The notes under the pieces are model-generated. The model was given only the letters and a program-made list of their open reading frames with translations, searched no databases and had not been told where the DNA came from. The position numbers and the translations under genes are program-made. Shown here piece after piece: positions 8,773 to 51,227 of a DNA stretch of 64,000 nucleotides. The stretch comes from Cyanophora paradoxa CCMP329 (Eukaryota > Plantae > Glaucophyta), in contig QPMI01000425.1 in the NCBI GenBank assembly GCA_004431415.1, positions 55,262 to 119,261 of the forward strand. The letters are read 5' to 3'. Each line of letters opens with the position of its first letter. Within the stretch, counting starts at the first letter, position 1.

Positions 8773-8875
8773 ATCGTACGATTTCCAGGACGTGAGGTGT
8801 GCTCCGACAACTCCGGTGTAATCCAATTCATGATAGAGTATGTTTAACGCTTCACGAGATTATGTTGCACGTACA

Positions 8876-9742
8876 GCTCGCTCCAAGGTAGACCCCACCA
8901 ATTGCGCGCGACCATTTTCAATAAGCACATTTACAGCATCACGAATCTCAGTCACAAAATCACAAATTCGCACTGAGCCACACTACATTTTTCAAACATC
9001 TAACCTCTCCTTACTGAAACCAATCACAAAAACCTACACATAATCTTCTCTCTAATCCCTTACCATTTTCAGTAAGCCCTAAAACCCTCTCTCGATTTCT
9101 CAGTAAGGACAGTAAGACCCTTATTTTTACGAAATGTTCCCGATCGTTTCCAAACTGTTTACAGTTACCCAAATTGAAAAATCAAGGTGAGCCCCACCGA
9201 TAGCTCAAATCAACATATAAAATGCGTTGATCCCCACTTAAAGGTTTCCCGCTATTTAGCTATAAAGATGCCGAGCAATCAACTCCCACTACCCAAAAGG
9301 AAGCAATGCACTATCTGCAAAGTAGATAGACCTGCATCGTGTTTTAGTTTGCGTAAATTAAAAACTGGTAATGTCGCATTGACTCCAAGATGCATCGAAT
9401 GCGACCGCGACTATCACCTTGACCTGTATCACAATGTCTTAAAAACGCGTCCGAAAATCGAAGTGCAATCGAAGATATGCTCGCACTGCAAGATTGAGAA
9501 GCCTGCAAGCGAGTATAATAAAAAACAAAGCACAAAGGATGGTCTCTACTATCAATGCCGAGAGTGTTATAGCAAAACTCGTAAGAGTTAAACCGAATTT
9601 CATTTTATATTTTTTAAAGCAAGCTTGTGCATGAGCAAGCATGCCGATAATGCCCACCTGCACACACTCGCGACTTCAATCGAAATGTTCCATTTAATGC
9701 ACTGGAACCACTCGCGCCCCGCCCACTATGCAAGATACATGC
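8876..9742 (+). repeat. Left terminal inverted repeat of element A (867 bp)
   Basis: Reverse complement of 34159-35025; the ORF translations 9187..9591 (+) and 34310..34714 (-) are identical. Confidence 0.95.
9268..9591 (+). CDS. TIR-encoded tandem Zn-ribbon protein (107 aa)
   Basis: ATG at 9268 matches the sibling's start (MPSNQLPLPK vs MPGNQLPLPK); two KxCxxC...CxxC units. Confidence 0.75.
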   Translation: MPSNQLPLPKRKQCTICKVDRPASCFSLRKLKTGNVALTPRCIECDRDYHLDLYHNVLKTRPKIEVQSKICSHCKIEKPASEYNKKQSTKDGLYYQCRECYSKTRKS

Positions 9743-10290: not shown

Positions 10291-10513
10291 GCAAAAAAAA
10301 CCAAACAAAAGGCAAACAAAAAACAAACAAAACAGCAAAACTAACAAAACTCGAAAAACAAACGAAACCGCACCACAAACCGTTAAACGCTTGTATCTCT
10401 TCACCAGCTCATCGCCTCGCAAAACCAAAAATAGCGCCGTGACCGTCTTGACGAGACCAGCACGCACATGTAGATATCATAGGGTCATTAAAATATGTGT
10501 CAAATAATTAATA

Positions 10514-10906
10514 ATGGATTCCCGATACCGCGGCTACCACGTAATGCTTGACTATATAACCGACCCGTTCACCGAGTCTCCGGAGGCATGCGCCGAGTGG
10601 ATCACAGCGAACCTATCGCAATATATCACAGATCGCAATATGCGCATCGTGCACCAGCACACTTGCATTTTCGATGGCTCTATTTCCCCTCCCGGTTTCG
10701 CGATTGGCTTTCTATTAGATGAGTCGCATGCCACAGCTCACTCTTATAGCGACCAGGGGCTATTAGCGATCGATATCTTTACATGCGGCTCAAATGCCGA
10801 AGCAAAGACGATGGGTATAGCACGGGACATTAACGAACTCATACAGGAAAGGCTGAAAGTGCGAAAGTGGGACTTACAGGTCGAGCAAAGGTTCCCAATT
10901 TCATAA
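10514..10906 (+). CDS. speD: S-adenosylmethionine decarboxylase proenzyme, short prokaryote/virus type (pyruvoyl-dependent)
   Basis: GxHxxxD at the N-terminus; LLDESHATAHSY self-cleavage motif (E/S-H); DIFTCG catalytic Cys motif; 130 aa. Confidence 0.88.
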   Translation: MDSRYRGYHVMLDYITDPFTESPEACAEWITANLSQYITDRNMRIVHQHTCIFDGSISPPGFAIGFLLDESHATAHSYSDQGLLAIDIFTCGSNAEAKTMGIARDINELIQERLKVRKWDLQVEQRFPIS

Positions 10907-10931
10907 AAAATGAAAAAAACGACAGATATAT

Positions 10932-11246
10932 TTAATGCTCCTTGATCGGAAACTTGCCCATTAGCGGGTGATCGAGACCCATGACATACCAGCATCGCAT
11001 AACGGGATCCCAGCGGGCTTTCTCAGCCTTCGCTTGATCCTTAAATTCATAAGGAATATCGAGGTAAACCTTCACGTTTCTTTGATACACTTGCTCATAG
11101 CTTAGAGTCTTGAACTGAGAGCATAGAGAGTGATCTTTCTTCGTGACATACCAGCATGAATTCTCACGATCCCACTTTCCACCGAGGGATTTCGCAACGT
11201 CTTTTTTATCAAACGGAATATCAACATAATACTTTTCACCCTCCAT
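10932..11246 (-). CDS. Tandem DUF5710-like protein
   Basis: Two copies of Y(V/L)DIP(F/Y)xxKDxAKxxx(G/A)(K/R)WDxxxxCWYV. Confidence 0.75.
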   Translation of the reverse strand: MEGEKYYVDIPFDKKDVAKSLGGKWDRENSCWYVTKKDHSLCSQFKTLSYEQVYQRNVKVYLDIPYEFKDQAKAEKARWDPVMRCWYVMGLDHPLMGKFPIKEH

Positions 11247-11259
11247 CTCTTTTATATTT

Positions 11260-11279: not shown

Positions 11280-11285
11280 GGTTTG

Positions 11286-12668
11286 TTATGAACGAGATGA
11301 CCGAAGAATGCGCGTAGTAGGGGCTGTATAGCTTGCGCTCTGATTCTTGAATGATTTATACCACCTCTGACTGTTTACCTCTGAGAGCTTCTCAGTTCCC
11401 GCGATCGTTAATTTAGCGAGCTCTCTCAGCGCCCTCTTTGTCTTTTCTGCGCGATCTTCCAATAATGCGCCTTTTGGAACACTTGCGGCGACATCTATGC
11501 CTTCTTTTTGAACCTGCCGGATAGAGGCGGCTTCTATTTCGGCTGCTTTGATTGCGTTGCCTGATGGTTCCACCACAGCTTCGACCTCTGTAATGATCTG
11601 CAATTCGTGCGGCTTAAAAAGCTTCGGCATTACGTTTCCGGATGCATCTTGCACCTCTATTGCGTTTCCTCTCCTTCCCGCAATTTTGTAGACCTCTCGG
11701 CTATACCTTTGGGTTGCCCCTTTATCGAATTTCGATCTCGGCAATAACAGGCGGACGTGGAGACCCGGCTTAAAGTCGCTGAATATATCCTTGACGATTG
11801 TGTTCTTTCTTGAAATAATAGCCGCTCGGATCCGCTCCATATCTGAGAGCTTGACATCCCCGGGTTTCATTCCTATCGTTCTGTGAATGGTGTTGTTGTA
11901 ATTGAAAACAAAGTCGTCCAATTTATCCATAAATCGCACAGTGTTATAAGCGACACAGTAATTGTTTATCATCGTTTTAAGGGTCAAATGGAAGCGATTC
12001 ATTATTCCCAGCGATGTGTGATCTCCGACCTGTTTAAAGCGGTGCTCTATCGCATTATTTTTCACGACCTCCTGAAACTCCTTTGCGATGAATTCTGAAC
12101 CGTTATCTGTTTCCAATCGAATCATCGGAGCCGGGAGCTCTGTTAGCATCTCCGCAAAAGCGGCGGCAACACTTGCGCCCTCCTTATTCTTTAACTTCTT
12201 GGCATATGCTTTTCGACTTGTCATCTCGATGAGAGTAAGGACTGCAATGTAGCCGGAATTATAGCTGCCATATGAGAGATAAAAGATGAGATCGGCTTGG
12301 TAGCACCACGGCGGGGCTGTGATGGGAATAAAAGCGGTTTGGGTCGGTGCGGGGGGCTTCTTGTTGATCTGCATAAATTCCTGTTTCGCTGCGACATCTT
12401 GCACTTCTTTCAGTGTGAGGGTCTTGTCCTCTTTTCTCAGTTCTTCGTATATTGCGGATGGGTTCTTAAAACCTGTCTTCGGGTCATACATGCGTCGCAC
12501 GATCTTAGAGGACGGGTTAGCAATGCTAAAAGGAACATCTCCTAATAAATTTGATTTTGCTTGGCGTTTTGTAATTTTTTGGGGGACTTGCTCAGTTTCA
12601 GGAACCGCGATAGGTAGTATGGTGGTCTCTGTCTCCTCTCCCGCTACCCTTCTGACGATCCGTGACAT
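11286..12668 (-). CDS. Polinton-type retroviral-like (rve) integrase
   Basis: YQADL (D1), LETDNGSEF (D2), xRFHLTLK helix with N at the third acidic position, YNNTIHRTIGMKP, and VRLLLPRSKFDKG...YSREVY at the C-terminus. Confidence 0.93.
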   Translation of the reverse strand: MSRIVRRVAGEETETTILPIAVPETEQVPQKITKRQAKSNLLGDVPFSIANPSSKIVRRMYDPKTGFKNPSAIYEELRKEDKTLTLKEVQDVAAKQEFMQINKKPPAPTQTAFIPITAPPWCYQADLIFYLSYGSYNSGYIAVLTLIEMTSRKAYAKKLKNKEGASVAAAFAEMLTELPAPMIRLETDNGSEFIAKEFQEVVKNNAIEHRFKQVGDHTSLGIMNRFHLTLKTMINNYCVAYNTVRFMDKLDDFVFNYNNTIHRTIGMKPGDVKLSDMERIRAAIISRKNTIVKDIFSDFKPGLHVRLLLPRSKFDKGATQRYSREVYKIAGRRGNAIEVQDASGNVMPKLFKPHELQIITEVEAVVEPSGNAIKAAEIEAASIRQVQKEGIDVAASVPKGALLEDRAEKTKRALRELAKLTIAGTEKLSEVNSQRWYKSFKNQSASYTAPTTRILRSSRS

Positions 12669-12686
12669 TCTTCTAATTAACCCTGT

Positions 12687-15600
12687 TTATTTTTTGCTGC
12701 AATTGCACCCGTGATGCGCGAGTTGACAATTGTCTTTAAGGTGTGGGCGCTTATTATTGATGCGATCCACGACGAGCCTGTAATTCGGATCTTGCGGCTC
12801 AATCGGAATCGGAAGGGAACAGAGCGCACAGGCGCCCTTCTGTTGCTTCTTGCGCTCTAATATCCACTCTGGCGTAATATAATCCGCCTCGTCGAAATCG
12901 CGCCCGGCACGCTGATCCTGGCATTTATAACCGCGGATCTTCGTTTTCAGATATTCGATGTAGTCACTCTTTCCTTGGAATCTGTGAATCGGTGTATAAA
13001 TCAGCACAGTGGACAGATCGCGGTTACGAGTGAGCGCGGTATAGAACCATTCGCGAGTGGTATAGCGGAACGTAGCCTCACAAATGACAATGCCCGAATC
13101 AAGTGTGAGACCTTGCGTTGAATGACCTGTTCCTGCATAAGGGAGAGAAAAATGTTCTAACATCGCACACGGAACCTCGAACGTGACGCCATCGAAAACG
13201 TCAGTTAATGTGACCATTTGCTTGGTGATTTTGGTGATCCGATAGGTGTAATTTGTGTATGCATTAATAGACTCACCCTCAGACCGCGAAATGCGTAGAT
13301 ACCTGCGACAAACGACTTCCAGACCCTTGTAGAATTTGATTCCGTTGACCTCTACGGTTGCAATATTTACTTTTCGTCTATCGTGCATCAGTTTGTTATA
13401 GGCTAAGGTCATTTCGTTTCTGTAAGCGATGCCAAAGTAGCCGTCAGGAATTGCGTTTAGATCATTAATTGTCGGCAACCCGTATTTCGAGATAATCTGT
13501 GCGGCTTCGAGTCCGTTTTCGAAGAGATCCTCTTTAATCGCCCGAATTAATTCACGGTCTGTCTCCTTCTTGTGCCGCTTGTTAATGCGTAGACTCAGGA
13601 CGTTAGGGAACATGCTCTGCACAGCGCGCTTATAGTAGCCCTTGCGATCAGAAACCGATAGCTCATCATTAATCGGTTCATTTTGATAGGTGTCGCCATT
13701 AGCCAAATATTTGATATCCGGATAGCGATCGATAAACGACTTGATCTTAGCGAGATCTTTTACGGAATACGCGAATATCTCGTCGAACATAATGTGACTG
13801 AACTCGGAGACGAACGCCCTCTGGTCTTTTTCGCTCATAGCCTCTTCGTAGGTCTGATCATTTGAGACACGGATCCCGAGAACATTATACAAAGTGCGAA
13901 CGGTGATATTCTCGATTCCGCGGACTTTGAGAGAGTCCCTCAGCTCTGCGCACTGTTTGTTATAGGGGCAAATAACTAAGCAATTCGACTTTTGAGATGC
14001 GAAACAGTTAATACCGAGTGTCGACTTTCCACTTCCGGGCATGTCAGCAAGGACAAGCATACGATTATGGAGCTTCGCAACCCAATTAAAGCACTCCGGA
14101 TTAAATTCGTCCCTCAGCGAGAACCGGTTAATGAGTGTCTCGGGATCCTGAAATTCGAGAGTTACACCCCGTGGTGGGCGGAGTGCATTCTCAGGGCATC
14201 TTTTCCCGGGAATATAGCTGAATTTGCCCATGTTCTCAAACGCATTTCGGTCGAACTCTTTCTTACTTGTCCATGAACCTTCGATATATAGACAGTCCGT
14301 TCTGATCCCGGCAACCTTGTGCCCGCGCGCTGTCAGGCGCTTGTATTGCGCAAACATATTAGCGCGGTTACGATCGTAAATATGAAAGTGGATAGGAAGG
14401 AATCCGTTAACGAGCTCGCGGTGGGAGCTGATCTTAACGAAATAGATGTGACCTTCGAATTCGCTAAGAGTTTTGACACGTTTCGAATTCTTAGGATTGA
14501 AAGTAAACACCTCTACTGTTCCTCCGCATTCTTGGGCGAACCTCTCAGCCTCGGCACGGTTGTAGAACATTTTCGTGGATGTTTGCGAGTCTTGGAATTT
14601 GCCGAGCATTCCGATATCTTTCACTAAAAGGTGCTTCTTGTCTGTGGTTTGAATGTCACTTGAAAGCACTTTCTTCATCTCAGAGATCGACGTATTGGGC
14701 ACCAAATGCGAAGGCTCCGCGACCGCGATAATCTCTATCTTGTCCTTTACGTCCGCCCAATGCATGGAGAGAGTGTAGCCTGTCATGAAATTATAACAGC
14801 GACCACTCACGGAAAATGCGCGATCCAGAATAATTTCGATTCCGTCAATCTTGCGAGACATGGCGGCATCATAATCAATGTCCTCATCGTCGGCGAAAGT
14901 CGCTTGCTCTCTCTCAAACGCAACGACACGCACGTAGTAGATCGCGTATTCGAGAATATCGCTTCCCGCTTTAAAGGGAACGAAGTCATCGAATACATTG
15001 TATTTCGGAAGATATTGCATGCCTTTCAGTATCGAAGGATAGCACTTCGCCATATCGACAGCTGTGTAGGTAGCTTTCGGGTTCGGCTTATAGAAAAAGC
15101 CGCTTAGTGCGGATCGCTTGTAGTGCGTGAGAATTTCGCGCATGTTCGGGCTGTAATGTGAGATATTCGTCGCATTTAGTAGCGACTCGCGGAAACCCTT
15201 ACCGATTTCACAGACCTTATTATAATACTCTTCTGTTTCGAAATCTTGCTCAATAAAGTGGTCGGTTGTGCGTGGATCTTTGATAGAGAACATCGAGCCA
15301 TTAGCTTTGAATGTGATGCTGTCGATCTGTTTCGATGGTGTTAGCTTCACAGCGGGCTCATATCGCATTTTCAGGAACGTGAATAGAAGACCTTCCAGAC
15401 CTTCGCGCCCAGTGTAAAGAATGCGGATGAAACTGCGCTCGTCAGGCGATAGTTTTAATTGCGTGATCTTTAACAGATCCTTGGATGTGTGCGCGAAGAT
15501 ATCGTGAGTAAGACACGTCGGAATTTTATAGAGTGCTAACGAAGAGGTCGACTTAGGAACATGATTATCGAGCTCTTCGACCTCCATCTTTGCCATGCGC

Positions 15601-16997
15601 ATTTCGAGCGACTTGATGTTATCGTTGAATATATAGATATGCTTGTTGTGAATCATAAAGTGAATATTGCGGGGATTGATATTTTTGTTAATTGATTCTG
15701 CCGCGAATTTGTATACTAACTTTCCGTCGACATCAAAGACGCGGAAGCCTGTCTGGATTCTCTTACAGAATTTCTCAATATGGCGGAGGGTGAGAGCCAG
15801 AGAGTCGCCAGGTGTGCGTTCGCGACCGTGAAAGAATTTATAGAGACCGTCGTAGGACATAGTTAAGTCAGTATATCGCGGTTTTGGCGCCTCCTGACAC
15901 TTCTTAATGGACGCTCCCCATGTGGAGATGATCATATCGTAGCCGCAAGCGTTAGATGTCGATGATTTGGGAAGCTCAATAATATCTTCGAACTCAGACG
16001 CGTTTGGATTTAATGTGTAGTCTGTGAATTTGCTCATAATCGCGGTGCATCGCATGCTGTCCATTAGCTCCTCATCCAGAAACGCATAGCGATTTCCAGG
16101 GATAGCACCGGCTCCGTCATCTTCGACACCTTCGTCCCCATCGATCACGACCTCATGAACAGTTATAAAGGCATCATCGACACTGCCGCCAAAATCATCG
16201 AAACCTTTGCGTAGTTTTTTCTGTTCCTCGGTTGGTGGTGTCTTAAAGAAGAACATCTCGTATGCTTGTCCGAAAGTTCCCAGACCAATCTTCAATTCAT
16301 CGTAGTTTTCGAGTAAATCGAAGATTGAATCTCTCTCTTCCGAATAATAACGATTTTGAGCGGTGAGAATTCCATACACTCTATCGATCTTTGCCAGAGC
16401 AAAGTTTCGCAACACCCTCACCGAAACTGTCTCTCTTATATTCTGGTAGGTGACAAAGGTTCTGTCTTTTATATATGTTCCGGGAATTCCGGGAATAACA
16501 ATTACCTCCGACGACCGAGCACCGGATCCAGGTCCCCATAGCTTGAACGTAATTGTTGCGAGAGTTTCCGGATCGTATGCGGCGATTGGATCGAGAATAG
16601 TGCGTTTAATCGCATCCTCTACCGCTTTTAGTTTACCTCTCTGCTGCTTCGCTTCGAGTTTCGCTTCTTTCGCCCGTTTCTGTTCTCGTTTGCGATCGAA
16701 GCGCTGTAAACGCTTCGCCTCTTGTTCTTTTTGCTTTTGCTTTTCTATATTAACTTGGGTGCGAGCGGCGCGCTTCTCTTTCCGCTCTGCCCTGCGGAAA
16801 ACGCGGGGATTAATGATTCCATTCAGCGTATCCCGAATGTCTATCAGCGTTTGGAGCTTGGGCTTCCGATTCATTGTGTTGTGCATCGCCCAATGCGCCT
16901 GTTCTTCGGTTAGCAAATCCTGACTCAATCCCTGCATAATGTATCCGATAATTTCATCCCGAACATTGTTAGCGATTCTGTTGGTTGCGCGCGGCAT
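12687..16997 (-). CDS. Multidomain replication protein: N-terminal domain, vOTU-like protease, pPolB-like palm, SF1 (RecD/Pif1-like) helicase and C-terminal HNH-like Zn domain
   Basis: NACGYD...HNKHIY (Cys/His pair); PolB motifs AVDMAKCYPS, KDIGMLGK and IRTDCLY; helicase motifs DMPGSGKS, FDEI, GDTYQNEP, GHSTQGLT and YTALTR; CALC...DRINNKRPHLKDNCQLAHHGCN. Confidence 0.8.
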   Translation of the reverse strand: MPRATNRIANNVRDEIIGYIMQGLSQDLLTEEQAHWAMHNTMNRKPKLQTLIDIRDTLNGIINPRVFRRAERKEKRAARTQVNIEKQKQKEQEAKRLQRFDRKREQKRAKEAKLEAKQQRGKLKAVEDAIKRTILDPIAAYDPETLATITFKLWGPGSGARSSEVIVIPGIPGTYIKDRTFVTYQNIRETVSVRVLRNFALAKIDRVYGILTAQNRYYSEERDSIFDLLENYDELKIGLGTFGQAYEMFFFKTPPTEEQKKLRKGFDDFGGSVDDAFITVHEVVIDGDEGVEDDGAGAIPGNRYAFLDEELMDSMRCTAIMSKFTDYTLNPNASEFEDIIELPKSSTSNACGYDMIISTWGASIKKCQEAPKPRYTDLTMSYDGLYKFFHGRERTPGDSLALTLRHIEKFCKRIQTGFRVFDVDGKLVYKFAAESINKNINPRNIHFMIHNKHIYIFNDNIKSLEMRMAKMEVEELDNHVPKSTSSLALYKIPTCLTHDIFAHTSKDLLKITQLKLSPDERSFIRILYTGREGLEGLLFTFLKMRYEPAVKLTPSKQIDSITFKANGSMFSIKDPRTTDHFIEQDFETEEYYNKVCEIGKGFRESLLNATNISHYSPNMREILTHYKRSALSGFFYKPNPKATYTAVDMAKCYPSILKGMQYLPKYNVFDDFVPFKAGSDILEYAIYYVRVVAFEREQATFADDEDIDYDAAMSRKIDGIEIILDRAFSVSGRCYNFMTGYTLSMHWADVKDKIEIIAVAEPSHLVPNTSISEMKKVLSSDIQTTDKKHLLVKDIGMLGKFQDSQTSTKMFYNRAEAERFAQECGGTVEVFTFNPKNSKRVKTLSEFEGHIYFVKISSHRELVNGFLPIHFHIYDRNRANMFAQYKRLTARGHKVAGIRTDCLYIEGSWTSKKEFDRNAFENMGKFSYIPGKRCPENALRPPRGVTLEFQDPETLINRFSLRDEFNPECFNWVAKLHNRMLVLADMPGSGKSTLGINCFASQKSNCLVICPYNKQCAELRDSLKVRGIENITVRTLYNVLGIRVSNDQTYEEAMSEKDQRAFVSEFSHIMFDEIFAYSVKDLAKIKSFIDRYPDIKYLANGDTYQNEPINDELSVSDRKGYYKRAVQSMFPNVLSLRINKRHKKETDRELIRAIKEDLFENGLEAAQIISKYGLPTINDLNAIPDGYFGIAYRNEMTLAYNKLMHDRRKVNIATVEVNGIKFYKGLEVVCRRYLRISRSEGESINAYTNYTYRITKITKQMVTLTDVFDGVTFEVPCAMLEHFSLPYAGTGHSTQGLTLDSGIVICEATFRYTTREWFYTALTRNRDLSTVLIYTPIHRFQGKSDYIEYLKTKIRGYKCQDQRAGRDFDEADYITPEWILERKKQQKGACALCSLPIPIEPQDPNYRLVVDRINNKRPHLKDNCQLAHHGCNCSKK

Positions 16998-17166: not shown

Positions 17167-17580
17167 CTACGAAGTTTTTGCGTTCTCGACGACATGCTTT
17201 CGGGGTCTTCCAGCGGGCTTTTGCGGTTGGGGTTTAGCGGGCGGATTCAGCTTGCGTTCCGCTCTCTTTCTGCGTTGGTATTCCCTTGCCTTCTCTCGGA
17301 TTTTCTCCCGATACTCTTCATCATCTTGGTATCGCTGCTGTTTACGAATTGCAATCTTTTGTAGCTGCTCCGGGGTAAATACAGTCGCTTCCCCTGCGGC
17401 TAATCGCTCCTGCTTTTGTCTCTGATGCTTGTTTCGCTGCCGCTCTGCATCTTTCTCGCGTTTTAGTCTTAATCTCTCCGCCTTCTCCTCTTCTGTGATC
17501 ACCTTCTTCGGTCGCCCTGGTCTGCGCTTTTCCTGCTGTGCCGCCATCGCCTCTTGGTTTGAAATCTTGGGTTTCGCCAT
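17167..17580 (-). CDS. Small basic AT-hook DNA-binding protein
   Basis: RRPGRPKK and GRPRK motifs; RYQDDEEYRE shared with 55733..55960. Confidence 0.75.
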   Translation of the reverse strand: MAKPKISNQEAMAAQQEKRRPGRPKKVITEEEKAERLRLKREKDAERQRNKHQRQKQERLAAGEATVFTPEQLQKIAIRKQQRYQDDEEYREKIREKAREYQRRKRAERKLNPPAKPQPQKPAGRPRKHVVENAKTS

Positions 17581-19013: not shown

Positions 19014-19925
19014 TCAAAATTTACCCAATTTTTTCGCAAATTTTGGGCGGCGCTTTTCTTGGTATGCCAGCAATAGATTGGGGTCTTTGAGAAGGTCGGC
19101 TTCGATTATTCTTTTGGTGGATCGCTTTAAGGTGGCGACATTTCCACTCACAGGTTTCGTAATATCTGTGGTTTGGGGTTGGGCATCGTTTACCTCGCTC
19201 GAACTCTGTTTTACCGGCTGTTTACCAGCGGTCTTTATCTCGTCCACCGGCTTTTTAAAGAAGCGCTTGAATTTATATTCGTCAGGCACCGGATCAGCCT
19301 TGCCAACAGAGAATTCCAGGCTATATTTCGCATTGTTTACCACGATCACCTGATAGCTGTGACTGTATTCGGTCATCACCTTCTCGAACCACCGCTTTTC
19401 GTATGGATTAAACTCGTCCTCGGCGCTCTCCATCTCCTTTCTATTCGGCAATGAGAACAGGAATATATATTCGGCGTTTACTCTGAGTGTCGGCGAGATC
19501 TTCGTGAGTTTCTGTGACAAAATCCAGACGCTCACAAACAGATGGCGTCCAGCCGTGAAAAGACGATTTAATATAGGCTCACCCTTTCCCGACATCGATA
19601 AACTCGGATTATCAATAAAATCGTCCAGCACAATTAACAGGTTACCGACTTTCTCATTTTTCTTGATCCTCTCCTTGCGTTTCTCTATTATATTGTCGAT
19701 CAGCTTATGGTCGAAATCCTCATACAGATACGATGTGACATTGTCGTATTGATGATTCCAGATCGTGGAGGCGAAAATCATCACCGAATCTATCTTGTCC
19801 TCGTTGTGGTAAAGCAGGTATTTCAAAAACACTGACTTCCCAGTTGCAGTTTTGCCCACAAAAACGGCGCGATTCGGAAATTCCAGGCTTTCCGGGTCAA
19901 ACTCATCCAATCCTTGTGCATCCAT
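19014..19925 (-). CDS. A32-like (FtsK/HerA) genome-packaging ATPase
   Basis: Walker A GKTATGKS, Walker B LLIVLDD, GRH, SQK and LRVNAEY; probable start MDAQG at 19925. Confidence 0.93.
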   Translation of the reverse strand: MDAQGLDEFDPESLEFPNRAVFVGKTATGKSVFLKYLLYHNEDKIDSVMIFASTIWNHQYDNVTSYLYEDFDHKLIDNIIEKRKERIKKNEKVGNLLIVLDDFIDNPSLSMSGKGEPILNRLFTAGRHLFVSVWILSQKLTKISPTLRVNAEYIFLFSLPNRKEMESAEDEFNPYEKRWFEKVMTEYSHSYQVIVVNNAKYSLEFSVGKADPVPDEYKFKRFFKKPVDEIKTAGKQPVKQSSSEVNDAQPQTTDITKPVSGNVATLKRSTKRIIEADLLKDPNLLLAYQEKRRPKFAKKLGKF

Positions 19926-19971
19926 TTCCCTTATTAGAAAGATATAAAAATTACGAAACGCCACAGCCTGA

Positions 19972-21420
19972 TTAAGCGCTGATGCGAGAAATACCGTTGG
20001 CATTCATTACAAGGATATTGTGGCAGTAAGCCGAAATCTGAACACTGACCTTCGACCAGGTGGCGAGGGGTGTGCCATTGGGTGTGAGGATTAGGAAGCT
20101 CGACGCTGATTGCGTTAGATCGACGTAGCCAGTCGCCTTCTCACCTTTGAGCGCCGCTTTACCATCGAGAGCAAAGCAGAAGCCAGTGTAAATGGGGCGC
20201 TTGTTGCTATCGATCCAGTTGGTCATCTTGAATTTATCGGCGAGCTCCATAGCCGCAGATTGCAGCGGGACACCAGTGTTAGAATATAGGTAATTGTTGT
20301 TATTTAGAACTTGCATCACGACATTATCATCGAAGGCAAGGGTGCGGACAGTAGAGTGCCCTCCTTTATTATCGCCGAGTGTGTTTTCGTCGCGAACCTT
20401 GACAACAAGTGCGTAAACAAGTCCCGAAATTTGAGATAGCGACAGGCGCAGACCAGAGCCGAGAGCAAGACCGGTATAATCCGCAAACTGAATATCAGTG
20501 TAGGGGATGGCGATGCCAGAGGTCTTAACACGAGTAATGATTTCGCCCATTGTTTCCTCATCGATGTTAACAGCATCCATAATAAGACGAGGGGTCGTCA
20601 TTTCCAGATTCGCAAGTGCAGGTGTAGGTGTGAGAGCCGCACTATCGAAAATCGCAGTGGCATTAGGGTGAGCTAAGGTCTTAATATTTCCGAAAGCAGC
20701 CGCAACAGCAAGCGTCGTCTCGCCATCAGTAGAGTTGGCAGCAGTAATTGCAGTCGTGTTATTCTGAGCGTAAACGCCAGGAACCGCCGCAGTTTCGAGA
20801 AGCGCAGGGGTTTGGAAATATACTTCGACCGCGATTTCGGATGGGAGCGCACCGATGGGCACACCAGCATCGAGGAAGCTTGGAATTCGCATGGTAAAAA
20901 TGCCGCCAGCTTGATTGCCGCCCTCTACCTTCGGTCCGAGATGTAGCCCATGCTTGCGCTTCTTTTGCTCGAATTCAGCCGGAGAGTTAGCGAGGAAGGC
21001 GTAATCTACCAGTCGCTCAGCGGGAATAATTTGCTCATACGACCCGTATTTAATGCTGACTCGCTGAACAAACGATCCAGGAAGCCCGCGGACGAATCCA
21101 GTATTGAATAGATCAGCCGAGCAGTCAGCAGAGGTCTTGGCGATGGCAGTCAGCGCCTTCGCCGATGGAATGGTAACTTGGAGGCTAATACCATTGCACC
21201 AATTGTAGCGAGGGAGATAGAAGACCACACGAGTGGTAGCACCAGTAGAGGAGAACAGATTGCCGGGATCCGCAATTGGGAGCACCTCAACACGAGAAGG
21301 CTTGAATTGTTTATCAACGCCCACAATAAATCCGCGATCCAAAAGCATGCTCTTGTAATCCTCCGGGGTTTCCAGGACGGATTTGAGCGTGAGGCGGGAA
21401 AGCGAGGTCGTGGGATCCAT
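19972..21420 (-). CDS. Putative double jelly-roll major capsid protein
   Basis: 482 aa, beta-rich, between the penton and the ATPase; homologous along its length to 52293..53666 (F.LPRYN.C, LSQISGLVY, GYVDLT). The fold is inferred. Confidence 0.78.
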   Translation of the reverse strand: MDPTTSLSRLTLKSVLETPEDYKSMLLDRGFIVGVDKQFKPSRVEVLPIADPGNLFSSTGATTRVVFYLPRYNWCNGISLQVTIPSAKALTAIAKTSADCSADLFNTGFVRGLPGSFVQRVSIKYGSYEQIIPAERLVDYAFLANSPAEFEQKKRKHGLHLGPKVEGGNQAGGIFTMRIPSFLDAGVPIGALPSEIAVEVYFQTPALLETAAVPGVYAQNNTTAITAANSTDGETTLAVAAAFGNIKTLAHPNATAIFDSAALTPTPALANLEMTTPRLIMDAVNIDEETMGEIITRVKTSGIAIPYTDIQFADYTGLALGSGLRLSLSQISGLVYALVVKVRDENTLGDNKGGHSTVRTLAFDDNVVMQVLNNNNYLYSNTGVPLQSAAMELADKFKMTNWIDSNKRPIYTGFCFALDGKAALKGEKATGYVDLTQSASSFLILTPNGTPLATWSKVSVQISAYCHNILVMNANGISRISA

Positions 21421-21452: not shown

Positions 21453-22739
21453 TTAGAAGAACGGATTATTTTTTACAGCCACCCCACTCAACGCATTCGT
21501 TAAATTTCCGCAATGAGGGTAGTCCTCATATAGCATTTTTGCGAATCCCTTATTAACAATGCGCTGTAAATCGTCGTCGGGCTCATCCACTCCCATAGTA
21601 ATTTCCAAAATGAATGTGTGCTCGCAGCTTCCGAGGAAATACCTATAACCGCTCTCCGTGAGAATTTGAACGGTTAAACTATCAAAGGAGAGGCGGGTGT
21701 TAAAGTATTTCGTGAAAGCATCCGCCCCATAATTAATTAGCTCAGCATCAGCATAGGCTGTGCCTTTCGAAATCGGGATCTTAGCGAGGAATCCATTAGT
21801 AGCCTCGGTGCATGTCGTAAAAAGCGAGCAGTCCGGCTCTGTGATCTTTAAAACTATTGCATTATCCGGTGTATAATCAGGGGCAGTGCCTCCGGCTATG
21901 CCTAAGACCAGAGCCGTCGAATTATAATTGCGGAATGCATCACCAGCTGAGTAAACGACACCACTCCCAGCAAAGGCTGTGTAGCCCGATCCGTTGTATT
22001 GATCTATCATTATATTCTCTCTGATCGATGTAAACCCGAGAAGAGTCATCGTGCGATAGGCGAGCACCTTTCTTTCATTCGCAGTAGACCCAGTGGCATT
22101 ACTCGGTCCATATTTCGTGAAAGCTATGTAGACATAATCACTCGAATAAAAGCATATGGCATTTAATGTGCTCTCAAAACGACATCGCACCACCGGGTAA
22201 AAGGTTCCCCCTGTCGATGCGTAGCTTGGATTAATTTTTGTGTCGATCATATCCTTGATGTAGTTGCCAGTTCCATTTTTCGTTAAGATGTTATCGATTG
22301 CAGTGGCAAGGTCGGTTCCAGTGGAGTATGTGCCAGGAGGGATCGTAATCGCTACGTCCCTGTATCGGGTATATCTTCTGAAAGTGTTTAGGTAATCAGG
22401 CGGTATATAGTTGCCTTGGTCGCCGAAATCTATCGCTTTGTATGCTTCGTATATTGCAGTTGCCTGTGAATCTCTGATTTCCTGAGTGGCACCATTCAGC
22501 TGACCGCTCGAAAATCGGTAAGGAAATGATATGAAAATCGTATTTGCATCATCGGCTTTTGTCTCCCCGATTTCAGTATAGAATTGAGGGCTTGGAACCG
22601 TGGGAATCGTGTTGGAAAACTCGATCTGTCGCACAGCGATGCTCTTCACATTGTGGTATTGCTTTGGAAGGGTCACCTTATAGGAATGAGCCGAGCCCTC
22701 TGATCGATCACGGCTACTGATGCTGAGATACTCTCGCAT
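21453..22739 (-). CDS. Minor capsid (penton-like) protein 1
   Basis: ISSRDRS...SYKVTLP...NVKSI...EFSN at the N-terminus and LTVQI...HTFILEI at the C-terminus, as in PLV/NCLDV pentons; start MREYL at 22739. Confidence 0.8.
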   Translation of the reverse strand: MREYLSISSRDRSEGSAHSYKVTLPKQYHNVKSIAVRQIEFSNTIPTVPSPQFYTEIGETKADDANTIFISFPYRFSSGQLNGATQEIRDSQATAIYEAYKAIDFGDQGNYIPPDYLNTFRRYTRYRDVAITIPPGTYSTGTDLATAIDNILTKNGTGNYIKDMIDTKINPSYASTGGTFYPVVRCRFESTLNAICFYSSDYVYIAFTKYGPSNATGSTANERKVLAYRTMTLLGFTSIRENIMIDQYNGSGYTAFAGSGVVYSAGDAFRNYNSTALVLGIAGGTAPDYTPDNAIVLKITEPDCSLFTTCTEATNGFLAKIPISKGTAYADAELINYGADAFTKYFNTRLSFDSLTVQILTESGYRYFLGSCEHTFILEITMGVDEPDDDLQRIVNKGFAKMLYEDYPHCGNLTNALSGVAVKNNPFF

Positions 22740-22766: not shown

Positions 22767-23741
22767 ATGATTCGGAAGCCAGTTAACGATTTCTATAATG
22801 GCAAGTTTACGAGGGTCAATGTTAATATCGATTCTATTGAGCGCAGTGCAGGGCACCCGGGAGAATATACAGTAAAGCTTTCTCAGCGACTTCTGAACGT
22901 AAAAGGGGTGCGCATTGCGAGCGCCGAGCTCCCAAACACGATTTATGCTGTCACCGATAATTCCAGAGGCGTGACCATACAGGGAATGACGAACAGCATC
23001 ACCTTTTCCCCTTTCCCTGATATAGGAAACTACACCCCCGCGATTTGGGGATATGGTAATAAGAACTTAGGCTATTCGGGCAGCTTTGTAGATGTGGATC
23101 CTCTCACAAGCGAAAGCGTCACAGTCTACTACAAGTGGCTCTATAATCCAGCGACTATGAAAATTACGTTTTATTCGAGCATTCCCCTCACACTGAGCTG
23201 TGCACATGACGACTTCGCAAGGTTCCATGGAATGATCAAAGGGGATATTTATCAAACAATTCCAGTTGGTGAGGGTTCAGAGCATCTCACGGTAGACTAT
23301 TTACCCCTCACACCCAGCAATCCAAAATACTCATTTCTACAAGCCTATGAGGGCAAAACAAAATACCCCGCCGGAATATCTGTGCTTCCATTCCCTCTCG
23401 AACATGCAGTGACCTTCCCAAATGCGATTAATCTAAATCCGACCCCCTATGTTTACCTACAAATTAAAGAGTTTACTCCCTTTTACGACAGGTATATGGT
23501 AGCAGCAAAGACAGATGAGGGCGGAAATGCAAACCTCGCTAAGATCCCACTAACCAGCCCCTTGGGATCGTTTGTTTACTACCTGACATTCCGCAGAATC
23601 GATACTGTGGAGTTCTTTAATTCCCACGATCAGGCTTATGATATAGACACCCTCACAATTAAATGGCTCGATGCCTACAATAATGTAGTCGACTTTAATG
23701 GCGTTAATCACAGCTTTATATTAGAGGTGCTATCGGGTTAA
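22767..23741 (+). CDS. Minor capsid (penton-like) protein 2
   Basis: NIDSIERS...YTVKL...SAELPNTIY; LTIKWLDAYNNVVDFNGVNHSFILEV. Confidence 0.85.
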   Translation: MIRKPVNDFYNGKFTRVNVNIDSIERSAGHPGEYTVKLSQRLLNVKGVRIASAELPNTIYAVTDNSRGVTIQGMTNSITFSPFPDIGNYTPAIWGYGNKNLGYSGSFVDVDPLTSESVTVYYKWLYNPATMKITFYSSIPLTLSCAHDDFARFHGMIKGDIYQTIPVGEGSEHLTVDYLPLTPSNPKYSFLQAYEGKTKYPAGISVLPFPLEHAVTFPNAINLNPTPYVYLQIKEFTPFYDRYMVAAKTDEGGNANLAKIPLTSPLGSFVYYLTFRRIDTVEFFNSHDQAYDIDTLTIKWLDAYNNVVDFNGVNHSFILEVLSG

Positions 23742-23759
23742 AATAATCTTATATTACAA

Positions 23760-26700
23760 ATGAGTATCACGAATCTCCCCTTTATCACTCGGGAAACCTT
23801 GTATTTGGATGACGGTTTCGAGCTCAGCAGTAACATTACCGCTTCCAATGTGACCATATCTTCGAACCTTGTGGTAAAAGACTTTCTATTAAATCAGAGC
23901 AACCTTGAATATATTGATATCACCAGCAATCTCCCTTTTACCTATGGCACTGATAACTCAGCCCTCGTTATCTATCATGGGGGCTCGCCTGTTGCATTCT
24001 TTGGCAGCAATTTCCCCACAGTGAGAACCTTCAAGCACGAAATCAATAAAGCCCGCCCCATCCCACTGACAGCTGTCGTCGAATGGGATCCTGTTAAGTA
24101 TTCGCAGAGCATCACAAGCAATATCACCCTCACTCGACCGCATTTAATTGATGTCATGGGGGTCGACCTTGTAAAGGAGTTTTATAGCGAGCGATTTACC
24201 AGAAATGAGCGAGATGTAGCCCAGGATCTCGAAATTTCTGGTTTATCAATTGCTACCGCAGCAAACACGGCAGGGCTCGCCGTTCTAACAGGAGCTATCA
24301 CCATCACTGATGCGATCATGTATTTATCCCGCGATTTGGTGCCTTTGCTCGATCATCAATTTAATCTCGGGCAATCTAACACTGATGCTGTTAAGAAATG
24401 GCTCAATGTGTATGCCTATGATGGGTGGTTTGATGACTTGCACACGACCAATTTTTATAGCACGACCTCAAAAACAAGTAACATAATCTTGCCTTTCAAT
24501 CACTCAGTCCGACCCAGTGATTTACCCACTGATGAGAGAGCTCTGATCAGCTATAACGACTTTAACAGCAATCTTTCCCGCTCAGTTTCGCGAACTGAGA
24601 CCTACACTGTCGAGGGATACCCTCAGCAGCTCGCAAATGGGGTCTATGTCGCTTATGTAGGCAAACCTACATATACATTCACTTGGGATCAGTTGGGTGT
24701 CACAGGTTTGGAGAGTATACCCACTGTTTCATTGGTGGATCACACAACTTATTATAATCCTATCACTAACAATAATGAATCTAATAAAGCGTTTATCCAA
24801 AATGTCACCTCCACAGGGTTTCAGGTCTCGTTTGTCATTAACGAGACATACAATTTACTTATCATCCGAAACAACTCATTGAGTTCCGAAGCTACTATTA
24901 GTTTCACTCTCACCATCAATTACATTAGCCCTGTATTCGATAGCAAACCCAGAGTAAAGGTTTACCGAGATTTACAAGGTAGCAATATCGTGCCCTTCTC
25001 ACAGAATTTCGATCTTGGGGCGAATTCTTTAAGGTGGAACACAGTTTATTCTTTGAGTGCAAACACCTGTAATATTGTGGTCGCAGGATCATCGGCTACT
25101 ATTGGAGAACTGACCGCCCCTTTTAGAAAGGAGTATCTCAGAGAACTGTATATAACAAAGTCTGATTTACCAGATGCTATTTCGTTGGTGCTCTCCCCCA
25201 CTCCCAGTATATCCTATCACAATGTGAAAGACACAAGTAATGTAGTGCAGAGGGGAAGCAAAGTATTCCAGGCATCCGAGATATCAGCATCAACATATAG
25301 ATACCTTGCAGGGGTTCCAGCGAATTTTAATTTCACATTTGAGACACCATTTGTTTCCCCTCCTACTATTGAAATAACTGACACGAATTTGTATGTGATC
25401 AATAATGGGTCGACCACCTCTATTAACAATGCACCAGCCGGCTACTCCCCATTTGTTGCAACTAACATAACAACCACCGGCTTCACACTTGTCGGAAATG
25501 CAACAGTGACATATGCTCTTACAGCATATCCTGTTGGGTTGTATTTTGCGAAATTTAATCTTTCAGCGATCCCACCTGTGTCCCTTTCTCCTCCCTTTAC
25601 TATCAATTGGAAGGCAACAGGAACTATTCCGCGATTTGACCCCGAAGACCGCTTGAAAATAAGGTATCCTCTCGATGTGACCGACCTCCATACTACGAGA
25701 ATAAATGGGCAGAATTTCGTATTTAATGGAACCAATGCAACTCTGATCGATAATCGAGTAACGAATAATTACTTTTTCGATTCTCGATATATTAATACTT
25801 GCAATATTGTCATACAGAACACGTTTGAGAATCGAAGTAAGACCTTATCAGTCACCTTGCCCACTCACTCGAATGTCTCAGATGGATTTCACTATTATCT
25901 TTTCAATCGCAATTACACCTCATATATTCCATACCCTTCTGAGACTGTCAACATGAGCTATCCCAGAGTCACCCTTACATCGACCAATGCTGACTTCTTT
26001 GGATCCACGGACTTTATGACCTTCTTTGCTTTCACATCGTCCACAGATGGTCTCTTAGTTTATTACACTTTCAGATATGATGCTGTTTGGACTCAGCTTG
26101 ACAGCCACCCAAATACAGATGTAATCGAAGTGGGCGATAAGAAATATATTAAAACCGCTTCCCCATGGGTGTGCACTGTCCGGCTCGATGATAGATACAC
26201 TCCCAACCTAAATAGCATCGGAATGCACTCGACTTGCAATATTTATGTGCAAGGTGCAATTTCGGCTACCAAATATTTCGAGGGTGGGAACTGTGATGCA
26301 GCCCATAGGTTGCTATCGAGAAATGGGCTCTTTGAGTCATTTAGTGGGACAGCTCTACCGCCATTTATCAGGGACACAGTCTATGATACTACATGCAATA
26401 TTTGGGTGTGCCGATCTGTGAGCAATCCACCTGTGACAAAGGAATTATATAAATATCTCTCAGATACCTATGGTGCAATTACAGGGTCTTCAACAGGAAA
26501 TCCAGCAACGGCTCCCATCGTGTTTGCGAATGCATACACAGCGCCGACATCATTAGCAGGGTCGACAGAGCCGCCACCAAACGATCCCAATCCGAACCAG
26601 CCTAACCCAGATCCCGATTCAAAAGATCCCCCTACAACTAATCCAGATCCAAACACACCACCGGCTATGTGGATGCACATTGCAAATGGGATCGGCTATG

Positions 26701-29700
26701 TGGATGCTATGGCAGGCACAGCCTTTCGAAATCTAAATTGCAACTGTGTGGGAGGGTGGATGTTTCAGATCTGTTCAAATGTCGATCCTACTATTGATCC
26801 CGCCACGATTACCTTTGATTGCAATTTATTCGCCCCCAAAACCATTTTCTCCATCACTTGCAATCTTGTTAATTCGGATGTTCCCATTATAGCACCTATT
26901 ATTGGGGCAAGTAACATATATATACAAAAAATGCCTGTGGCTACTCAGGACTTTGTGTCGTCCAATTACCTATCCCTTGCAGGTGGAACAATTACAGGTG
27001 ATCTGACAGTGAATGATACATTAGAGATAAAAAACAAAATCCTTATTGGAAACAATGAGATTTTAAGGGCGCCTTTAAACTTCTTAGATTTCGATGCTGG
27101 GGGTTTGTCTCAATGCCTTCTACGATTTAATGCAAGTTTAGATGATGCTTGGGAAAATAATGTATTGGTCTTTGAACTTGTTAATAAGGGAAATGCTAAT
27201 GTTATCCAAAAACTGATACAGTCAGGAAGCGTAGTATTCAAAACTTCGGGAGGTCCTAATAACAAACCCTTTTATGATGTAGCAGAGACCAATAGCTTCT
27301 CTACATTCCGTTATTCCTTCTCTTCTACAAATGCAGCAGGTTATGAAACGATTGATTTCAGTGGAGGGATAACTATTGCATGTGTGATTAAATTAAGAAG
27401 CGCTGAACCGCTTGAACCTATTTTACAGTTTGATGGATCTTCTTCACTTGGTAGTGTAGGGCAGATTTGGAGTATCTCCAAAGGTCAATGGGGTGATGGT
27501 TTCGTTTTAAACATCAGTAAATTAGACCAATCTACTTTCAGGGTTCCACTCACACTTGACGAAGTGGATTCTTGGACAATCTATGACATCACAATAACAA
27601 GCACATCCGTGAAAGTGGGTGTTAATGCAAAAGAGAGACAGACTTTTTCAATTACAAATGGTTCTCACCTACCCCGAAATGATGTAAAGTATGTATATTT
27701 GGGAAGTCAATACTCGAAATTCGACCTGTGCGAATTCTATTGTTTCACAAGAGTCTTAACAGCCGAGGAACTATATAATTTACGATGGTATCTTCATCAA
27801 TTCTACGGATTTGTGGAAGACCCTACAAACCCAATACCAAGAGATGATAATAAACTACTCATCAAGACTCAGGAACTACAAGTAACAGGGATGAACTTAG
27901 CAACCACCAATGGTGTAGCAGCATTACTTACAGAATTCACAACCTCGAATGTAGTAAACGGATGGTTAAATAAATACACCACTTCAAATGTTGTGGAGGG
28001 TTGGATTGCAGATTCAGAAGCGTTGTTAGATAACTACTTACCATTAACAGGTGGAACTATCACAGGAAATCTTAGCGTGAGCAATCAAGGGAACACTGAC
28101 AGCAAACTCAAAATATATGAGAACACTTTCAAATTGGATTATTTGGATGTCTCGACGTTTAATGTCCTTTCAGTTCTTAATGTTTTCGTTTGGGTCAGAG
28201 CAAGGGACAACATGAAAGATGGAACGATAGTGAGTGGACTTGGAAACGGAGCAGGAGACGTTTGGTTTGATAATAACCCTGAGACACCGAATTTTCTTCT
28301 TGGGTTTGGTAATGTTGCTGGGAACTCGACACAAATTAAGAATAATGGAGGTCCTAACAACAAACCTTATTTTAATTCGTATCCTACAATTAACTTCAAC
28401 TTTTCAGCCTATAATACGTGGGGGGCTGAGTGTGAACTTTTCATGAGCCAAACTTCACAGCAACATTTAACTGTGTTTTTCGTCGCGAAATTCACAGATA
28501 CAGCACCTCCAAATGTAGAGAACGTTTTATCTTTGAGTTATGGAACCACAAATTGGAGCATCAATAAATGGAATAATGGTGCGACTTGTTATATTCAGGT
28601 TTCTAATGGGGTTGGAGCAGCAGGATTAGGTGAAAGCACTTCACCAAGTAACGCAAAAGCAGAAATTACATACTCCGAAATGACGACATGGACACTCTAC
28701 GAAGTAACAGTCTCTCCTTCCACTGTTACATTTGGGATCAATGGTAGCAATAGAAGTGTTGCAAATGTTACAAACATGTTCCCCAATAACCTTGTTACTG
28801 AAAGTCGTATTGGCTCTTCAACCTCCAAACAAGATTTAGCAGAGCTAATAGTGATTATTAAACCAACAACAGAAATCGTGAAGGACAACATACGAAGTTA
28901 TCTCCTCCAAAAATACGGCTATCCTGAGCCATTGGACAATCCTTTCGCCAGTGACCCTAACAAACTTCTTCTCCAAACAAACAGTCTGAGAGTTACAGGA
29001 AGTCTTATAGCTAACAACCTCCAATATACAGCACCAGCACCAGGAGGTGGTTTTATTATCAAAGATTTTCAAACAAGTTCAAGCCTTCAAGATGCAGAAA
29101 TTACTGCTATCAATGCCCAAATTACACAGATACAAGAAAGCATAGATAGTATCAATACCAATTTAGAACCTTTAACCACTTCTAATATAGTTGAAGAATG
29201 GATAGCACCTTTAACGGCATCGAATGTGGTTCATGAATGGATAGCACCTTTAACGGCATCGAATGTAGTTCAAGAGTGGGTAGCTCCCCTGACTGCTTCC
29301 AATGTAGTCCAGGAGTGGATAGCCCCCCTGACTGCTTCCAATGTAGTTCAAGAGTGGATAGCCCCATTGACTGCTTCCAATGTAGTTCAAGAGTGGATAG
29401 CACCACTGACTGCTTCTAATGTGGTTCAAGAATGGATTGCTCCAAAGGCAGATATGATCGCCATTAAAGATCATGTTTCTTCCAACTACTTACCACTCAC
29501 AGGTGGAACAATCACAAGCAATTTGAGTGTCAATGGAAATCTCGCCATTGGTTCGAATACATTGCAAGAGTTGAACAAAGATTACTACCAAATAACAGCA
29601 AGCAATGATCCCGCTTCTAGTATTCCCAATTGCCTCTTTGCATGGAAAGCCTCAGGGGTTCATGGTGAATCCGCATTCAATTCCAATCTTTTCAATAGAG

Positions 29701-34158: not shown

Positions 34159-35025
34159 GCATGTATCTTGCATAGTGGGCGGGGCGCGAGTGGTTCCAGT
34201 GCATTAAATGGAACATTTCGATTGAAGTCGCGAGTGTGTGCAGGTGGGCATTATCGGCATGCTTGCTCATGCACAAGCTTGCTTTAAAAAATATAAAATG
34301 AAATTCGGTTTAACTCTTACGAGTTTTGCTATAACACTCTCGGCATTGATAGTAGAGACCATCCTTTGTGCTTTGTTTTTTATTATACTCGCTTGCAGGC
34401 TTCTCAATCTTGCAGTGCGAGCATATCTTCGATTGCACTTCGATTTTCGGACGCGTTTTTAAGACATTGTGATACAGGTCAAGGTGATAGTCGCGGTCGC
34501 ATTCGATGCATCTTGGAGTCAATGCGACATTACCAGTTTTTAATTTACGCAAACTAAAACACGATGCAGGTCTATCTACTTTGCAGATAGTGCATTGCTT
34601 CCTTTTGGGTAGTGGGAGTTGATTGCTCGGCATCTTTATAGCTAAATAGCGGGAAACCTTTAAGTGGGGATCAACGCATTTTATATGTTGATTTGAGCTA
34701 TCGGTGGGGCTCACCTTGATTTTTCAATTTGGGTAACTGTAAACAGTTTGGAAACGATCGGGAACATTTCGTAAAAATAAGGGTCTTACTGTCCTTACTG
34801 AGAAATCGAGAGAGGGTTTTAGGGCTTACTGAAAATGGTAAGGGATTAGAGAGAAGATTATGTGTAGGTTTTTGTGATTGGTTTCAGTAAGGAGAGGTTA
34901 GATGTTTGAAAAATGTAGTGTGGCTCAGTGCGAATTTGTGATTTTGTGACTGAGATTCGTGATGCTGTAAATGTGCTTATTGAAAATGGTCGCGCGCAAT
35001 TGGTGGGGTCTACCTTGGAGCGAGC
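34159..35025 (-). repeat. Right terminal inverted repeat of element A
   Basis: Reverse complement of 8876-9742, followed by the TSD CGTACA. Confidence 0.95.
34310..34633 (-). CDS. TIR-encoded Zn-ribbon protein, second copy
   Basis: Translation identical to 9268..9591. Confidence 0.75.
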   Translation of the reverse strand: MPSNQLPLPKRKQCTICKVDRPASCFSLRKLKTGNVALTPRCIECDRDYHLDLYHNVLKTRPKIEVQSKICSHCKIEKPASEYNKKQSTKDGLYYQCRECYSKTRKS

Positions 35026-35699
35026 CGTACACTCAATGCAACGGATTGAAAACCGTAATAAAGCCCGTTGAGTAACGTGATCGACCAACCATCGGACGTG
35101 CACTAATTCAGCGGCACGTTATCGAATACAGCTGCACATGCTACTTGCATACTGCAGTGACTCGCTCATGTTGCACAGTCTTCCACTACTCTGGGTAATG
35201 CCTGGAGACGGGGGGCTGGTCCAGTTGGAAGCCAGCGCCGGGTTGCTTGCGGGGGGGGCATGGCGGGAGCGACGGAGTACGGGGCACTATGGGGCGGCAA
35301 GGACGATGCGCTGCGGCGGGCCGGTGCATGGGGGCGGAGCGCGCGGGGCGGAGGGCGATGGGCTGCCTCCACATCTCTCGGCTGACGTGCGCAAGATTGT
35401 GCTCACCCCGGTCGCCATCGCCCTTGCATGACCGACTCATCATATCGCTGACGGATGACGTTTGCCACGTTCTCGTCCGCGCTCCTGTAACGACATCGGA
35501 ATCAAGATTTTATAGTATGGCGAAGTGTAGAGACGTGTTGACAAATTAAAGGGAGAGGGGGGCGACGGTACATGAGGAGGGGGGGGAGGGCGGTAGGGGG
35601 GGAGGGGGGTATGGAGCTTACCGCCGAATGGCCTCCTCCGCGAGTACGGCCACCTGCATTGCAAGAGTCAGCCGTCATACTGAAAACGTCATTATCGGT

Positions 35700-51199: not shown

Positions 51200-51227
51200 T
51201 TTAATATATGTTTATAGATAAAAGAAG

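Follow-up and report, generated by a model that had tools for sequence, protein, structure and literature searches.

Not every protein with the fold of the SAM decarboxylase SpeD acts on SAM. In the study of Li et al. 2023 (PMC10407285), proteins from Marine Group II and III archaea (MGII/III), Poseidoniales, Gimesia, Solirubrobacter, Nannochloropsis and Tribonema form one clade (SpeDA) with arginine-only activity. The results given there for the assayed members report no ornithine or lysine activity, and the members tested failed in speD complementation. In MGII, speDA shares gene clusters with speB and speY, and the known SpeD-derived ornithine decarboxylases (ODCs) make up a single clade with diagnostic Gln, Thr, Phe and Tyr residues (PMC10407285). 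The same source gives S63, H68 and C83 of the T. maritima enzyme as the residues needed for processing. In the viral world, pyruvoyl arginine decarboxylases are reported from phages only in the consulted sections of a virosphere survey (PMC9992855).

Polinton-like viruses (PLVs) are usually viewed as minimal capsid-plus-replication modules. A fusion of polymerase and helicase is a described mark of these viruses (PMC5499653), a 6-bp target duplication is the rule for such elements (PMC12220804), and small elements with NCLDV-type capsids have been described (bioRxiv 10.64898/2026.06.19.733378). The presence of the AdoMet_dc domain (PF02675) in such elements is already tallied, without interpretation, in Table S6 of Bulzu et al. 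2025 (PMC12220804), which counts it in 66 of 156 glaucophyte elements, 17 of 57 from Cryptomonas pyrenoidifera, 10 of 177 from C. borealis and 45 of 706 from Rhodomonas lacustris, with zero in the other host groups, the 17 reference PLVs and the 40 virophages. It stands there as a bare AdoMet_dc column, unmentioned in the main text. Full-text literature searches returned no paper joining polinton with adenosylmethionine decarboxylase, or polinton-like virus with polyamine, and virophage with the enzyme name gave nothing about such elements in the text retrieved. The enzyme name is absent from the supplements of PMC10120064, and the word decarboxylase from the main texts of two 2026 preprints. 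The gene described here is of a known enzyme kind in a new setting, with an unusual carrier.

The window, by which we mean the whole 64-kb stretch of DNA that was analysed, contains an element of 26,150 bp spanning 8876-35025 (Table 1). It has perfect 867-bp terminal inverted repeats, and CGTACA is duplicated on both sides, bearing out the earlier note's description of a 26-kb integrated virus bounded by such repeats. These repeats and the 6-bp duplication, together with the rve integrase, the packaging ATPase (Pox_A32) and a replication protein that is PolB-derived with a superfamily 1 helicase, place the element among the PLVs. The PolB-like motifs of that protein were read by eye, and its helicase and endonuclease parts come from profiles. 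We rejected the assignment to a Polinton (Maverick) proper, for which an intact pPolB and a maturation protease serve as the criterion; a Pfam scan of 12 ORFs of the element matched neither DNA_pol_B_2 nor a protease.

Table 1. Features of the element and its borders, in window coordinates.
Feature	Position	Strand	Basis
Target-site duplication CGTACA, left copy, 6 bp	8870..8875		X1 contig match ends at 8875
Left terminal inverted repeat, 867 bp, identical to right	8876..9742
107-aa Cys-rich ORF within repeat, resembles endonuclease VII / HNH zinc-finger parts	9268..9591	+
Predicted class 1b SpeD-fold pyruvoyl decarboxylase proenzyme, SpeDA-like clade	10514..10906	+	profile, fold, tree
104-aa protein, two DUF5710 repeats, convergent with decarboxylase gene	10932..11246	-
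Retroviral-type (rve) integrase	11286..12668	-
1436-aa replication protein: degenerate PolB-like motifs, superfamily 1 helicase, C-terminal endonuclease VII-like domain	12687..16997	-
Basic 137-aa protein, weak AT-hook match	17167..17580	-
A32-like packaging ATPase	19014..20003	-	Pox_A32 39.3 bits
Likely major capsid protein, NCLDV-like by language-model features	19972..21420	-
Likely minor capsid (penton-like) protein	21453..22739	-	position and counterpart in second element
Second likely minor capsid protein	22767..23741	+	weak DUF5901 match
3451-aa fibre/tail-like protein, repeats, C-terminal H-type lectin domain	23760..34115	+
Right terminal inverted repeat	34159..35025
Mirror copy of 107-aa Cys-rich ORF	34310-34633	-
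Target-site duplication CGTACA, right copy	35026..35031

The likely major capsid protein, the candidate for the double jelly-roll capsid expected of a PLV, has 38% identity with its counterpart in a second element in the window. Atlas places it at 0.98 to Capsid_N/Capsid_NCLDV clusters with recognition below the threshold of the tool; it gave no Pfam, PHROG or PDB sequence match, and its single-sequence fold has a pLDDT of 32. The GC content is 43.5% in the element against 55-62% in the flanks, and its CpG o/e of 1.01 indicates no depletion. Within the fibre-like gene there is a 699-bp internal duplication (29606-30304 and 31916-32614, 97.6%) and a short-period repeat array at 30431-30979. Single-protein scans with the decarboxylase gene, capsid, ATPase and P0151, together with a capsid alignment, found no loci of free-living relatives in viral contigs, and matches to capsid, penton and integrase were absent from the 42 viral loci with a SpeD homologue.

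The insertion point lies approximately 100 bp past the stop codon of an intron-containing histone H3-like host gene (8207-8773, plus strand), and the presence of this gene shows the host to be a eukaryote. The encoded histone scores 88 bits with Pfam Histone and diverges in its N-terminal tail. An inverted remnant of a related element end at 6100-7690 is 82% identical to 8947-10003; it includes a separate copy of the 107-aa Cys-rich ORF and ends short of the decarboxylase. The second Polinton-like element, at approximately 49000-64000 and cut by the window end, contains two penton-like genes, a capsid gene, ATPase and integrase in pieces, a primase-D5 helicase and pPolB. Its CpG o/e is 0.61, compared with 1.01 in the first. 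Within this second element, at window positions 49380-49806 and 58595-58730, lie repeats of about 130 bp that are inverted relative to each other, in part palindromic, and contain TGTGACGCC units; similar units are found in the first element at 10240-10290. No SpeD homologue was found in the visible part of the second element. The stretches 1-6200 and 40800-43200 are GC-rich host DNA with long-period tandem duplications, where none of the ORFs tested has a Pfam match.

The first element carries an intact class 1b SpeD-fold gene. The frame is unbroken and its translation has 130 aa, with ESH at residues 70-72 and FTCG at 89-92; the earlier note was right that this is an intact gene of the SpeD family with these two motifs. 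The product scores 45.1 bits with Pfam AdoMet_dc, where the cut-off is 25, and 48.4 bits with TIGR03330, below the equivalog cut-off of 75.65; divergence alone could also explain this shortfall. Ser71, His76 and Cys91 align with S63, H68 and C83 of the T. maritima enzyme (1tlu), and are invariant across a 77-row alignment. Self-cleavage of the proenzyme is predicted at Glu70-Ser71, with the Ser codon at 10724-10726. The AlphaFold2 model has a mean pLDDT of 96.8, and the five best structures that Foldseek returns for it, among them 2iii, 1vr7 and 1tlu, are all class 1b AdoMetDCs, from Aquifex and Thermotoga (E 2e-8 to 3e-7), with a TM of about 0.7 and 20-24% identity. No second SpeD homologue was found elsewhere in the window.

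The gene is not peculiar to this one copy of the element. At least half of the words of 10000-13000 are present in 19 listed sequencing runs, all under one organism label, and contigs cover the gene in all three of the runs examined. Its absence from other copies, which the earlier note would have taken as fatal to its proposal, is therefore not what we observe. A contig of run X1 matches the left flank and stops exactly at 8875, and this fits an empty insertion site. Contigs from X1 and X11 diverge directly upstream of the gene, with loose ends at 10505, so the gene has more than one upstream context among the copies. Synonymous changes account for 19 of the 23 variants listed in four element genes, beyond which there are 250 more.

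These data bear on whether the gene is a passenger from a host or giant virus, non-processing or weakly active and kept by hitch-hiking. The best full-length identity to any relative is only about 46%, the sequence just upstream (10505) differs in some copies, and the gene is missing from what can be seen of the second element, all of which would suit a passenger. Against this, frame and triad are intact, both of the variants listed in the decarboxylase gene among other copies are synonymous, and the domain recurs in 138 elements of four host groups (PMC12220804 Table S6). We give the passenger explanation little credence.

We compared the protein with its relatives using phmmer against 1.84 billion representatives, giving 294 matches at E<=1e-3, of which the best full-length ones are approximately 46% identical. 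A single-sequence word search with the element gene gave no match. Among the 141 relatives parsed from the best 150 of the 294, Asp precedes the cleavage motif in 139, and in all 141 Pro is missing from the third position after the catalytic His, where canonical SpeD has the proline of HTWP. Across the phmmer relatives the shared pattern is SPPGF..LDESH..AHCY...G.LA.D.FTCG, with RF at the end. The element protein and its SpeDA relatives have in common the signature SPPGF..[LI]DESH..AH.Y...G.LA.D.FTCG..RF. With respect to the candidate prolines of Li et al. (the 'gamma' proline, Fig. 8), Pro59 is kept and the HTWP proline is Ser79. We rejected the latter as a clean marker of AdoMetDC, as the validated AdoMetDC of phiYS40 also lacks it. 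A literature search for the substrate-binding residues of T. maritima found no paper.

Three maximum likelihood trees were calculated, with SH-aLRT as the only branch support, and of the SpeDA clades of Li et al. they cover that of MGII, Gimesia and the stramenopiles. In the first (112 rows, a rank-chosen subset of 396 domains after redundancy reduction), the element protein lies in a 95-row clade with the MGII rows at a support of 98. The second, with 62 rows and a mixture model, separates it at 99 from 13 canonical rows that include the validated enzymes of S-PM2, phiYS40 and P2559S. The third has 79 rows, with the addition of 13 archaeal canonical rows and 14 divergent, mostly ODC-type, rows, and again splits it from the canonical proteins at 99. 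A plasmid search for outgroup sequences gave no match. The protein falls between planctomycete-like and MGII groups in the 62- and 79-row trees, and in the 112-row tree its subclade is sister to, not within, the MGII and planctomycete group. This subclade comprises 18-29 mostly unnamed rows with supports of 96-98 (14 rows at 87 in the 79-row tree); it includes PQ-loop and deoxyhypusine synthase (DHS) fusions and no named assayed member. Profile scores point the same way, at 119.6 bits for MGII versus 55.8 for canonical proteins. All three trees group the protein with MGII and planctomycete-like proteins apart from canonical SpeD. In AU tests on some 129 columns, which are weak tests, forcing the protein together with all canonical rows gave p=0.386, with the giant-virus canonical rows p=0.093, with the phage canonical rows p=0.049 and with the archaeal canonical rows p=0.048.

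The gene neighbourhoods of prokaryotic relatives were analysed in GTDB, where a clade-biased pattern found 549; the figures that follow are for the best 80, all labelled as MGII-type or broader euryarchaeal. The MGII-type proteins are approximately 38-54% identical to the element protein over the best segment. A DHS/speY-like gene lies within 4 kb at 79 of the 80 loci and an agmatinase-like gene at 31, and all 11 of the genomes checked that lack an adjacent agmatinase-like gene have an arginase/agmatinase-family gene elsewhere. All 20 MGII-type genomes examined have a SpeD domain, and spermidine synthase was found in none of these (incomplete) assemblies versus 10 of 14 controls. By gene content, these neighbourhoods correspond to the speB-speDA-speY homospermidine set. 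Cluster look-ups did not find the assayed accessions of Li et al. 2023, so that the connection with them is made through taxon and gene order.

Fusions provide a further indication. The 38 relatives of at least 200 aa in the top 150 include five with DHS (one under the cut-off), four with PQ-loop, three with NNMT, two with SET (one under the cut-off) and one with an arginase-family domain, and none with spermidine synthase. A search for longer forms, in which 7993 candidates were scored, gave six matches, of which three are fused to DHS, one to PQ-loop and none to spermidine synthase. Several PQ-loop proteins are reported to transport arginine and other cationic amino acids, and the PQ-loop fusions could couple transport to decarboxylation. 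P0044 and P0049 (the latter with DHS under the cut-off) are listed as fusions of a SpeDA-like domain with an NNMT methyltransferase and DHS; P0004, P0014, P0035, P0036, P0172 and P0289 are also listed among the fusion relatives, of NNMT/DHS or PQ-loop type. The triple fusions could make N-methylated polyamines.

On the strength of phylogeny, neighbourhoods and fusions, we conclude that the element enzyme is probably a pyruvoyl arginine decarboxylase of the SpeDA type that makes agmatine and does not act on SAM. The label of SAM decarboxylase given in the earlier note is probably wrong, and its warning of homologues with Arg or Orn as substrate was well placed. A true AdoMetDC, supplying dcSAM to a host spermidine synthase or draining SAM to blunt silencing by methylation, is in our judgement unlikely. 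The names assigned by Pfam, PHROG and Atlas point to it, as do the match of catalytic triad and fold, and a pair of class 1b homologues from giant viruses have been validated as AdoMetDCs (PMC9992855). Fusions to SAM-dependent methyltransferases occur among the relatives (NNMT in 3 of 38, SET in 2 of 38), and the p value of 0.386 leaves room for a basal position. It is opposed by the score under the TIGR03330 equivalog cut-off, by the separation from all canonical rows at 98-99, and by prokaryotic relatives whose genes lie in speY clusters and whose genomes lack spermidine synthase. Moreover the members of the SpeDA clade tested for complementation did not rescue a speD mutant (PMC10407285).

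The enzyme might instead decarboxylate ornithine (or lysine), ornithine giving putrescine directly with no need of a host agmatinase. A eukaryotic host pathway would be able to use putrescine directly, the DHS and PQ-loop fusions would suit any basic amino acid, and one phage homologue uses both Arg and Orn (PMC9992855). Yet the SpeD-derived ODCs are one clade with its diagnostic residues, and the ODC-type rows lie across a branch with a support of 99. These rows have QLIETSLISGH (as in Fig. S5 of PMC10407285) where the element protein has LDESHATAH; over the slightly longer segment used to define the SpeDC ornithine decarboxylases, the comparison is LDESHATAHSY against IETSLISGHFA. Lysine was used by no homologue among those assayed. 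We regard this as quite improbable.

If arginine is the substrate, we lean towards a role in polyamine supply. The proenzyme would cleave itself at Ser71 and decarboxylate L-arginine to agmatine, so that on activation of the element an arginine-to-agmatine route would arise without need for pyridoxal phosphate. Agmatine would then pass to putrescine through host enzymes of the agmatinase type, and putrescine to spermidine through further host enzymes; viral translation, DNA replication and packaging would be served by the increased polyamines, the part in packaging being an inferred one. No gene using agmatine was found in the element, and with no next-step gene present putrescine and spermidine would need to come from host enzymes. 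Such reliance on the host has been proposed for pelagiphage enzymes, and spermidine is reported to support eIF5A hypusination and virus replication (PMC9992855). The link to polyamines made in the earlier note stands. Its second suggestion, that the enzyme drains SAM and blunts silencing, loses its basis with the assignment to the SpeDA lineage. PLVs have been suggested to counter silencing through Tet-like genes (bioRxiv 10.64898/2026.06.19.733378). For the present enzyme such an effect would require SAM as substrate and a high flux, for which there is no support in the data, and the element shows no CpG depletion (o/e 1.01); we consider it highly improbable.

A quite different role for the same reaction would be that of a metabolic weapon in the triangle of host, giant virus and Polinton-like virus, in which a giant virus would wake the element and the enzyme would then deplete arginine and fill the cell with agmatine. 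Hypusination is inhibitable by guanidino-amines. In a host without agmatinase, agmatine would be a dead-end guanidino-amine, and spermidine-dependent translation and the giant-virus yield would be throttled. We consider this a long shot. If true, a virophage-like element would for the first time be known to have a metabolic defence gene, one taken from a SpeDA pool held in common with giant viruses.

Viral contigs contain SpeD homologues of both types, canonical with HTWP (L101, L103-L125) and SpeDA-like (L086-L100, L121). Several of the SpeDA-like loci adjoin giant-virus genes (RNA polymerase, poly(A) polymerase, AEP-D5 primase, A32 ATPase), and the SpeDA-like genes of giant-virus-like contigs may be unrecognised viral arginine decarboxylases. 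The giant-virus rows lie outside the subclade of the element protein in all three trees, and there is hence no support for a direct giant-virus donor. Giant-virus-like contigs with the SpeDA-like clade are L087, L088, L089, L090, L091, L092, L093, L095, L096, L100 and L121; L086 is phage-like, and in L092 the gene adjoins an ATG8-like gene. Spermidine synthase is found in none of the six viral records with the SpeDA-like type and in none of the eight with the canonical type, and its absence does not therefore separate the enzyme types. The lack of a spermidine synthase partner pointed out in the earlier note is real as far as the 12 scanned ORFs of the element go, and is uninformative in a virus.

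A recurrent metabolic gene would suggest that the PLV cycle is limited by, or acts on, the arginine and polyamine pools of the host. Should arginine prove to be the substrate, a eukaryotic virus would be seen to have a pyruvoyl arginine decarboxylase, and many genes labelled AdoMetDC in such elements and in giant viruses would be misnamed.

Compared with the SpeDA proteins of MGII, Gimesia, Nannochloropsis and Tribonema (PMC10407285), the element protein has the same class 1b size and fold, triad and signature, and shares their branch in three trees; unlike the genes of that clade, its gene is stand-alone and intronless, in a small integrated eukaryotic virus, and has no speB or speY partner. 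With the class 1b AdoMetDCs of Thermotoga, Aquifex, cyanophage S-PM2 and the Heterosigma virus it shares the fold, ESH and FTCG, but it has HSYSD in place of HTWPE and an Asp before ESH. With the viral arginine decarboxylases, the pyruvoyl enzyme of pelagiphage HTVC201P and the PLP enzyme of chlorovirus PBCV-1 (PMC9992855), it would have in common an arginine-to-agmatine step added by the virus, and HTVC201P, as the element would, depends on host enzymes downstream. HTVC201P, which is outside the trees presented here, is placed nearer the ODC clade in PMC10407285, unlike the element protein; the PBCV-1 enzyme has another fold and the virus its own downstream genes, and neither is a small integrating virus. 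As a carrier, the element resembles the PLVs of Bulzu et al. 2025 (PMC12220804) in its terminal repeats, 6-bp duplication, rve integrase, A32 ATPase, capsid module and fibre.
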